From a virus (taxonomy: Duplodnaviria > Heunggongvirae > Uroviricota > Caudoviricetes), in the IMG/VR virus record IMGVR_UViG_2531839374_000008: a stretch of DNA of 4,658 nt; one strand, 5' to 3'. Shown here one piece after another: positions 1 to 4,658 of this stretch. The notes under the pieces were generated by a model. The model saw only the letters and a program-made list of their open reading frames with translations, was not told the DNA's origin and did no database searches. Position 1 is the stretch's first letter, and each line of letters starts with the position of its first letter. The translations under genes and the position numbers were made by a program.

Positions 1-543
1 CTGCCAGTTGCGCCAAATCTGCTGAACCAGACGTTCGCTCCTACAGCACCAAATCAGGTCTGGGTGGCGGACCTGACGTATGTTGCCACACAGGAGGGAT
101 GGTTGTACCTCGCTGGCATCAAAGATGTTTATACGTGCGAAATTGTCGGCTACGCCATGGGAGAGCGCATGACAAAAGAGCTGACAGGTAAAGCCCTGTT
201 TATGGCGCTCAGGAGCCAGCGCCCACCTGCCGGGCTAATCCACCACTCTGATCGAGGTTCACAGTACTGCGCATACGATTACCGGGTCATACAGGAGCAG
301 TCTGGTCTGAAAACATCAATGTCGCGTAAAGGTCACTGTTACGACAACGCTCCGATGGAAAGCTTCTGGGGAACGCTGAAAAATGAGAGCCTGAGCCACT
401 ATCGTTTTAATAACCGGGATGAAGCCATCTCAGTAATACGGGAATACATTGAGATTTTCTACAATCGTCAGCGTCGTCACTCTCGTCTGGGGAATATCTC
501 CCCGGCAGCCTTCAGGGAAAAATATCATCAGATGGCTGCTTAA
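1..543 (+). CDS. IS3-family transposase OrfB, C-terminal catalytic (DDE/integrase-core) fragment; 5' end lies outside the window
   Basis: Frame 1 is open from base 1 (LPVAPNLLNQTFAPTAPNQVWVADLTYV...) to TAA at 541-543. It carries the conserved IS3-family motifs WVADLTYV (first D), HSDRGSQY (second D) and YDNAPMESF (E). Overall it resembles retroviral-integrase-like OrfB of IS3-family elements. It is clearly different from the IS911-like OrfB that begins at 4297. Confidence 0.9.
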   Translation: MPVAPNLLNQTFAPTAPNQVWVADLTYVATQEGWLYLAGIKDVYTCEIVGYAMGERMTKELTGKALFMALRSQRPPAGLIHHSDRGSQYCAYDYRVIQEQSGLKTSMSRKGHCYDNAPMESFWGTLKNESLSHYRFNNRDEAISVIREYIEIFYNRQRRHSRLGNISPAAFREKYHQMAA

Positions 544-590
544 AAAAAGAACAAATGGTAGTGTCCGCTATTGCCAGTACACCTCATTCA
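1..590 (+). mobile_element. 3' portion of an IS3-family insertion sequence (distinct from the IS911-like copy at the right); right terminus inferred near 590
   Basis: Contains the C-terminal part of a DDE transposase (1..543). About 47 bp after the stop the sequence ends ...CAGTACACCTCATTCA (575-590), which resembles the reverse complement of the IS911-like left end at 3977 (TGAAGTGGCACACTG) and ends in the CA typical of IS3-family termini. An outward-facing TTGCCA (571-576) lies 14 bp from this inferred end. The exact boundary is an inference because the left end of the element is outside the window. Confidence 0.7.
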
Positions 591-619
591 AAGAAGCCTA
601 CATTGCTGAGTTCGACCGC

Positions 620-868
620 ATGGAGGCCGAACTGCGCCAGAATAACACCCCACCTGCTGACAAGATGATTCCGGGTGATGGTCGCACTCTGGTTGTTCAC
701 TTCGACAAATTCGGCAATGTCGAATTCACCGAAACCGTTCCTGATGGCGCACTGGTCTGTACCCTGGAGACTTTCCGGTTTTATCTGGAAAAACAGGGAT
801 GGACTCTTGTTAACCGGGGCGCAATTAAAAATATGACTGTGGAACAATTACTCAAAATTCATTGTTGA
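620..868 (+). CDS. hypothetical protein (82 aa from ATG 620); possibly the 3' remnant of a gene truncated by the upstream IS insertion
   Basis: Open frame with protein-like composition (MEAELRQNNTPPADKMIPGDGRTLVVHFDKFGNVEFTETVPDGALVCTLETFRFYLEKQGWTLVNRGAIKNMTVEQLLKIHC), stop TGA 866-868. The same frame stays open and protein-like upstream to the inferred IS end (...KEAYIAEFDR before the ATG), and there is no convincing SD before ATG 620. The part of the track ORF upstream of ~590 (449..) is transposase DNA read in another frame. Confidence 0.4.
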   Translation: MEAELRQNNTPPADKMIPGDGRTLVVHFDKFGNVEFTETVPDGALVCTLETFRFYLEKQGWTLVNRGAIKNMTVEQLLKIHC

Positions 869-878
869 GGACGCAATA

Positions 879-1007
879 ATGGAGACGTTATTACCAAACG
901 TTAATACGTCTGAAGGTTGTTTTGAAATTGGTGTCACTATCAGTAACCCTGTATTTACTGAAGATGCCATTAACAAGAAGAAAACACGAACGGGAGCTAT
1001 TAAATAA
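879..1007 (+). CDS. tiny hypothetical ORF (42 aa), speculative
   Basis: ATG at 879 preceded by GAGGA (867-871, 7-nt spacer); METLLPNVNTSEGCFEIGVTISNPVFTEDAINKKKTRTGAIK, stop TAA 1005-1007. Below the ORF-track size cutoff. Short and AT-rich, so coding status is uncertain. Confidence 0.15.
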   Translation: METLLPNVNTSEGCFEIGVTISNPVFTEDAINKKKTRTGAIK

Positions 1008-3929: not shown

Positions 3930-3976
3930 AATCTATGGCGCTTTTTCAACGAGCAATAAACACACAGGCCTATCTA

Positions 3977-4012
3977 TGAAGTGGCACACTGAATTTGGCC
4001 ACCTGAACAGAG
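3977..4012 (+). repeat. left terminal inverted repeat (IRL) of the IS911-like element, about 36 bp
   Basis: Terminal TGAAGTGG... lies 72 bp upstream of the orfA start. The length is taken from what is known of IS911 (about 36-bp IRs). The inner boundary is approximate. Confidence 0.55.
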
Positions 4013-4048
4013 GTGATATGCTCACCTCAGAACAACACAGGTGCTCCA

Positions 4049-4658
<610 letters not shown>

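Follow-up and report, generated by a model that had tools for sequence, protein, structure and literature searches.

Results

Gene content of the contig

The stretch of DNA analysed here (the window, 4,658 bp) is the complete draft contig AMGB01000047.1 of assembly GCA_000296305.1, whose proteins were deposited under Shigella flexneri 1485-80. The contig starts inside a copy of IS600 and finishes inside a copy of IS911, the pattern left by a short-read assembler that breaks at repeats. Between them lies a piece of the early operon of a lambdoid (Qin/Rac-like) prophage. All listed prophage genes are on the + strand, in the order remnant ORF, dicB, a DUF1482 gene, a phrog_4778 gene, a RecE/exonuclease VIII-like gene, gam and the stump of an AAA ATPase gene. 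The remnant ORF (620-868) encodes the 82-amino acid protein EJZ66707.1, which carries the GenBank name "phage regulatory protein, Rha family domain protein". Scanning the window with Rfam for DicF or for isrK/C4 gave only two matches, both at chance level and away from the remnant.

Homology to the prophage of E. coli CFSAN029787 ends about 50 nt past the DUF1482 gene (window position 1310, position 5726 of the corresponding locus L001). Past this point the window follows another prophage type, with phrog_4778, RecE-like, Gam and AAA ATPase genes, that is present at the ttcA site of E. coli O121 201805972. The switch of prophage type at position 1310 is a mosaic joint of the kind typical of lambdoid prophages.

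The DicB protein (EJZ66708.1) is shortened to 42 residues instead of 62 (window 879-1007) by a 1-base insertion at window position 978, where the contig reads AAGAAGAAAAC and CFSAN029787 reads AAGAGAAAAC. In S. boydii-type assemblies dicB is shortened to 36 residues, and IS66-family transposase genes lie directly downstream. Three further genes carry indels in homopolymer runs at window positions 1513, 3368 and 3648 when compared with E. coli O121 201805972, namely A7 versus A9 in the phrog_4778 gene, A7 versus A8 in the RecE-like gene, and T6 versus T5 in gam, the last of which breaks the first 12 gam codons. These indels could be real slippage mutations or sequencing errors of a 2012-era draft. 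IS911 occupies window positions 3977-4658, with its left end TGAAGTGGCACACTG... at 3977, and cuts the AAA-family ATPase gene located 3' of gam after 14 codons (3935-3976; MALFQRAINTQAYL). This stump is the second IS-made gene stump on the contig.

IS600 and its right boundary

The 3' part of IS600, an IS3 family element, occupies window positions 1-586 on the + strand. The contig starts within the element and contains orfB codons up to the stop codon at 541-543. Positions 1-584 are 99.8% identical to copies annotated as "IS3-like element IS600 family transposase", including the 3' end of orfB, and the Pfam families rve, rve_2 and rve_3 match in this part. The right terminal inverted repeat of 27 bp, ending ...CACCTCA, spans 560-586 (+ strand). 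Its reverse complement, TGAGGTGTACTGGCAATAGCGGACACT, agrees at 19 of 27 positions with the IS600 left end, TGAGGTAGCCTGAGTTTAACGGACACT, taken from full copies, and the element thus has the imperfect 5'-TG...CA-3' terminal repeats of IS600.

The window and two independent IS600 copies are the same up to and including ...GTACACCTCA and differ from the following base onward, which sets the right end of the element at window position 586. The initial annotation had put this terminus at about 590; a boundary does lie near there, and alignment of the IS600 copies moves it by 4 nt. Codon 190 of the parent gene described below begins at position 587. BLAST homology to that gene seemingly begins at 585, because the terminal CA of IS600 equals the target sequence by chance. 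The orfB stop codon is located 44 nt before the junction and in a frame other than that of the remnant.

An intact parent gene in E. coli

The proposal in the initial annotation was that an IS had cut a pre-existing gene and left its 3' ~90 codons, and that a homology search should find the intact gene. Such a gene is present, uninterrupted, in E. coli CFSAN029787 (L001:4436-5284), where it is annotated with 282 amino acids (WP_046881151.1) under the RefSeq name "Rha family phage regulatory protein". The remnant, at 587-868 on the + strand, corresponds to codons 190-282 of this annotation plus the TGA stop; with 93 codons and the stop it agrees well with the proposed length. It is 100% identical in amino acid sequence to residues 190-282 of WP_046881151.1 (L001:5003-5284). 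The single base difference over 587-868 is at window position 592 (AAA versus AAG, both Lys), and DNA identity is about 99.6%. The two genes are colinear and occupy the same genomic position, with dicB and the DUF1482 gene next in both. Megablast of positions 582-1300 against 5,426 complete E. coli genomes gave alignments from position 585 onward to a feature named "Rha family phage regulatory protein". The best E-value of the remnant homology was 1e-57, and the remnant also matched phrog_25059 and the C-terminal end of phrog_995 ("transcriptional regulator"). All database homologues of the remnant were Rha-family proteins or fragments of such proteins.

In the intact 282-residue annotation, the Pfam family Phage_ASH covers residues 14-105, Phage_pRha residues 118-202, and TIGR02681 residues 107-208. 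The scores are well above the respective cut-offs (105.4 bits against 29.9 for PF09669, and 107 bits against 45.95 for TIGR02681), and the last ~80 residues carry no Pfam or NCBIfam assignment. The remnant retains the last 13 residues of the Pfam Rha domain and 19 of TIGR02681. Neither the remnant (587-865) nor the longer open frame (449-868) matched any family in Pfam or NCBIfam, so that the remnant fails the PF09669 and TIGR02681 cut-offs that the intact parent passes. The remnant is a fragment of a Rha-family member and not a member itself.

The annotated N-terminus of the parent deserves a separate comment. An Rfam search of the intact locus identified isrK, with its terminator, at L001 4487-4566 (63.7 bits, gathering score 50) and C4 antisense RNA at 4585-4672 (71.3 bits, gathering score 45). 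Both RNAs fall within the annotated 5' third of the coding sequence, its "Ash" part (L001:4436-4750). A GGAGG motif is located 8 nt upstream of the ATG at L001 4727 (Met98), and an orf45-like ORF of 46 codons runs from the ATG at 4589 in frame into the ATG at 4727. Cluster members with 184 residues, from E. coli and S. sonnei, carry annotations as complete proteins of the Rha family. The real parent protein therefore probably has about 185 residues and starts at Met98, and the 282-residue annotation probably over-extends across the isrK and C4 RNA genes. What is annotated as the N-terminus may be a translated regulatory RNA leader rather than protein, and the same might hold for some of the Pfam Ash family. 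On this numbering the remnant would probably comprise residues 93-185, the C-terminal half of the protein.

The parent gene lies directly upstream of dicB in a Qin/Rac-like lambdoid prophage, and an isrK sRNA and a leader ORF are found directly 5' of the regulator; both are absent from the window. The isrK/C4 leader shows weak similarity to the SfV "immunity region" and adjoins antirepressor-annotated genes in other phages. From this organisation we infer that the parent is an anrP-type regulator of about 185 residues, with a putative antirepressor function suggested by the family annotation and by synteny with Gifsy-1.

Origin of the junction

The junction between the IS600 right repeat and TTCAAAGAAGCC was found in eight Shigella assemblies, this one and seven others that include the closed chromosome CP026731.1. 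None of the 5,426 complete E. coli genomes carried it, and the exact junction pattern had no match in GTDB representative genomes. The left end of this IS600 copy lies outside our contig and was therefore examined in the seven sister assemblies. Where visible, their left flank (...GCGATCGACCTGCGCCTGCAC; ...CGCCTGCAC in CP026731.1) is neither rha nor TTC: it ends in CAC, the right flank starts with TTC, and a 3-bp target-site duplication is lacking. A control IS600 insertion, which splits a dnaB-like gene, has the duplication CAT|IS600|CAT. The missing duplication together with the unrelated left flank points to a scar of an IS-mediated deletion or rearrangement and not to an intact simple insertion. 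For the same reason the copy is not a pristine insertion, which is no argument against its identity as IS600. For strain 1485-80, the rearrangement step is deduced from the sister genomes that share the junction.

The left-flank DNA in the sister assemblies is a fragment of a DUF4376 tail-region gene, just downstream of an ipaH-type gene. The ipaH-type effector gene at this place encodes 571 residues with LRR_TTSS and NEL domains (L011:6696-8704 in CP026731.1; also L012-L015 and L020). Several further copies of IS600, IS1, IS66 and IS110 are located within 10 kb in the sister genomes, and in one of them (L017) the locus is inverted between IS600 copies relative to L011.

These data bear on where the element first landed. 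IS600 may have inserted elsewhere upstream, after which an adjacent deletion, or recombination between IS600 copies, ran into rha and ended at codon 190. The lack of a target-site duplication and the unrelated left flank in every assembly that shows both ends speak for this order of events, as do the several IS600 copies within 10 kb and the inversion between copies. If IS600 had instead inserted into rha and later recombined with a second copy, the same junction and the same truncated gene would result. We regard an upstream insertion as a real but somewhat less probable course; it is a variant of truncation at IS600 and not an alternative to it. A reciprocal junction ...GCCGCTGCATTC|TGAGGTAGCC... 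in Shigella would mean that IS600 had inserted at the exact site with duplication of TTC. A query with the N-terminal half of the parent returned nothing near-identical among Shigella products ending in ...KKAAAF, the expected reciprocal fragment, in a word-indexed search that yielded few candidates.

Two scaffolds, L016 and L019, were considered as IS-free or reversed-IS junctions and were discarded since each has a scaffold "N" at the critical base. L019 (FTVD01000154.1; 6584-7066 and 7020-8283) also contains a second rha-like copy, the 3' end of which (...ATGACTGTGGAACAATTACT) is broken by a reversed IS600. This copy suggests repeated IS600 strikes on rha paralogues, in a scaffold that has an N gap at the neighbouring junction.

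Coding potential of the 82-residue ORF

The frame of the remnant is open upstream through the IS end to a TTG at position 449 within IS600, in keeping with the earlier description of this frame as open and protein-like, and from position 587 onward it encodes residues 190-282 of the intact gene. Gene finders call the ORF at 620-868 (+ strand; EJZ66707.1), whose start is the internal Met201 of the parent. The ORF holds 2 residues of the Pfam Rha domain (118-202) and 8 of TIGR02681 (107-208). No Shine-Dalgarno motif precedes the ATG at 620 (upstream sequence ...ctgagttcgaccgcATG), as had been noted from the letters alone; in contrast, the dicB start is preceded by GAGGA, which overlaps the stop codon of the remnant. 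A scan of 400-1100 on both strands detected no sigma-70-like promoter. Because the ATG at 620 is an internal Met that lacks a Shine-Dalgarno sequence and because no promoter-like site was detected, the remnant is presumably not expressed as a protein of its own.

The initial annotation had named homologues that start at the equivalent of ATG 620, with their own promoter and ribosome binding site, as evidence that would speak against truncation. None was found. P0006 and P0009 (94-97 residues) begin at base 1 of their own contigs and are edge partials. P0011 starts at the equivalent of Met201, 60 nt 3' of a 100-residue Phage_pRha ORF; it is parted from its own Rha head by small local indels and an in-frame stop, and constitutes the downstream half of a locally frameshifted rha. 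In the S. boydii partial protein P0001, the reading frame crosses this same IS600 end and continues into the same remnant sequence. Alternative ORFs that overlap the locus (antisense 584-847, 675-836 in the +2 frame, and 555-668) lacked Pfam or PHROG matches and were treated as spurious.

We also weighed whether the 82-residue ORF is a genuine free-standing gene, expressed by read-through from IS600 and supplying the C-terminal module as a regulator in its own right, for instance a dominant-negative or partner-titrating fragment. It is called by gene finders and in GenBank, an identical 82-residue protein is encoded on 16 contigs from several Shigella lineages, its tail module folds confidently in an AF2 model and occurs in other architectures (at the N-terminus of P0032, and after an unrelated N-terminal part in P0027), and transcripts could plausibly run out of orfB, whose end is 44 nt before the junction. 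The conservation is nevertheless explained by very low divergence, given a single synonymous change relative to CFSAN029787, and with so few substitutions selection and recency are indistinguishable for this ORF. The start codon is the parent's internal Met201 without a Shine-Dalgarno sequence, positions 400-1100 lack a promoter-like site, close homologues of similar length are all contig-edge partials or split pseudogenes, and the neighbouring genes on the contig are decaying too. A free-standing gene is accordingly improbable, and a truncated, silent remnant accounts better for the ORF.

The C-terminal module

The remnant consists of the last helix of the Rha head and a conserved C-terminal accessory module of about 70 residues (659-865, + strand), with the pattern GDGRTLV..FD..GN..FTE.VPD...VCT...F.FYLE..GW... 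The suggestion that the retained end could be a small DNA-binding domain did not hold, since the DNA-binding part is the Phage_pRha domain that was lost and the tail is an accessory module. The tail had no family match in Pfam or NCBIfam and no fold match in the PDB. This accessory module is small, of alpha/beta type, and confidently folded in an AF2 model.

When 1.84 billion representative proteins were searched exhaustively with phmmer, only 24 matched the module at E<=1e-3. In full-length relatives the module is found C-terminal to three types of heads, Phage_pRha (P0025, P0038), AntA (P0023) and ORF6N (P0030). In P0032 it is N-terminal and in P0027 it follows an unrelated N-terminus, architectures from which it may be able to fold and act alone. 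Tblastn of the remnant against 50,697 deposited phages gave no match at E<=1e-5. Deposited phages match only residues 1-108 of the 185-residue protein and the tail finds no match; these head-only matches indicate that the boundary between head and tail is a mosaic joint. The beta-hairpin stretch GDGRTLVVHFDKFGNVEFTETVPDG of the tail gave weak, multi-stretch phmmer matches to repeat proteins of 592-2,859 residues (P0031, P0035, P0036, P0039, P0040, P0042 and P0043). This stretch of ~30 residues may be a generic repeat-like motif, and the repeat-protein matches look like motif resemblance.

Speculatively, the tail could serve in partner binding or oligomerisation in the intact protein and not in DNA binding. 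A more far-reaching proposal, that the tail is a distinct unclassified domain, possibly a module for repressor-binding specificity, with the 82-residue fragment perhaps made by read-through as a decoy, strikes us as quite unlikely.

Discussion

Taken together, positions 587-868 very probably represent the 3' end of a regulator gene from a prophage early operon, truncated at IS600 and no longer functional. IS600 abuts codon 190, inside the Phage_pRha domain, and the promoter, the isrK/C4 leader RNAs, the ribosome binding site, the start codon and nearly all of the DNA-binding Rha head are absent from the contig. By deletion or recombination, IS600 would have eliminated the 5' part or moved it elsewhere, either following a simple insertion or in place of one. 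An assembly artefact, in which collapsed IS repeats yield a chimeric contig end, is a scarcely credible source of the junction, for although this is a draft contig with both ends inside IS elements (IS600 and IS911) and the sister scaffolds L016 and L019 have an "N" gap near the junction, the junction lies 586 bp inside the contig, recurs base for base in the closed chromosome CP026731.1 and six other independent assemblies, and is read through by the independent S. boydii partial protein P0001.

By itself the remnant matters little: Shigella prophages are heavily decayed, and this adds one further pseudogene made by an IS. Its value lies in annotation. The name "Rha family domain protein" for the 82-residue product is misleading, since it contains essentially no Rha domain, and the ORF should be marked as a pseudogene fragment. 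Similarly, the 282-residue coding sequence of the parent likely overruns isrK and C4, and its match to the Pfam "Ash" family may reflect a translated RNA leader. The cut separates dicB and the downstream early genes from what formerly lay upstream, including the regulatory leader, a separation in line with the silencing of prophage functions that is general in Shigella. The retained tail is worth keeping on record as a rare unclassified module.

The closest known relative is the Rha family protein WP_046881151.1, with which the remnant is colinear over residues 190-282 and whose gene has the same place upstream of dicB and the DUF1482 gene. Unlike that protein's gene, the remnant lacks a start codon, a ribosome binding site and a promoter, and it matches neither domain model. 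At the level of domain organisation, Iyer, Koonin and Aravind (2002) are said to have described modular phage regulators built from KilA-N, Bro-N, Rha, AntA and ORF6N domains with shuffled C-terminal domains. The tail module behind Phage_pRha, AntA and ORF6N heads resembles such regulators, from which it differs in belonging to no Pfam or NCBIfam family and in having no PDB fold match.

With respect to the leader, the intact parent resembles the isrK-orf45-anrP module of the Salmonella prophage Gifsy-1, in which translation of orf45, and through coupling also that of the antirepressor-like AnrP, is activated in trans by IsrK (Hershko-Shalev et al., 2016, PMC4825925). Like that module, the parent locus has isrK with its terminator, C4 overlapping an orf45-like ORF, and a Rha/antirepressor-like ORF of ~185 residues. 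The orf45-like ORF of the parent is fused in frame, whereas in Gifsy-1 the two ORFs share an AUGA overlap; in S. dysenteriae, orf45 is apparently fused to anrP to give 287 residues (PMC4825925). The window differs further from Gifsy-1 in that the RNA leader is absent. The c4-icd-ant arrangement of P1 has been named as related to the Gifsy-1 module.

A parallel to the truncation itself is found in E. coli O145:H28 RM12761, where the same gene upstream of dicB is cut on its 5' side by an IS3-family element. That copy is annotated by PGAP as an incomplete pseudogene, a Rha family regulator "missing N-terminus". It represents an independent event, as 420 nt of the gene are kept compared with 282 nt here and the IS, which is not annotated as IS600, has the opposite orientation. 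An IS-truncated prophage pseudogene of this kind is thus ordinary and already known, and public annotation treats such pieces as partial Rha-family genes.
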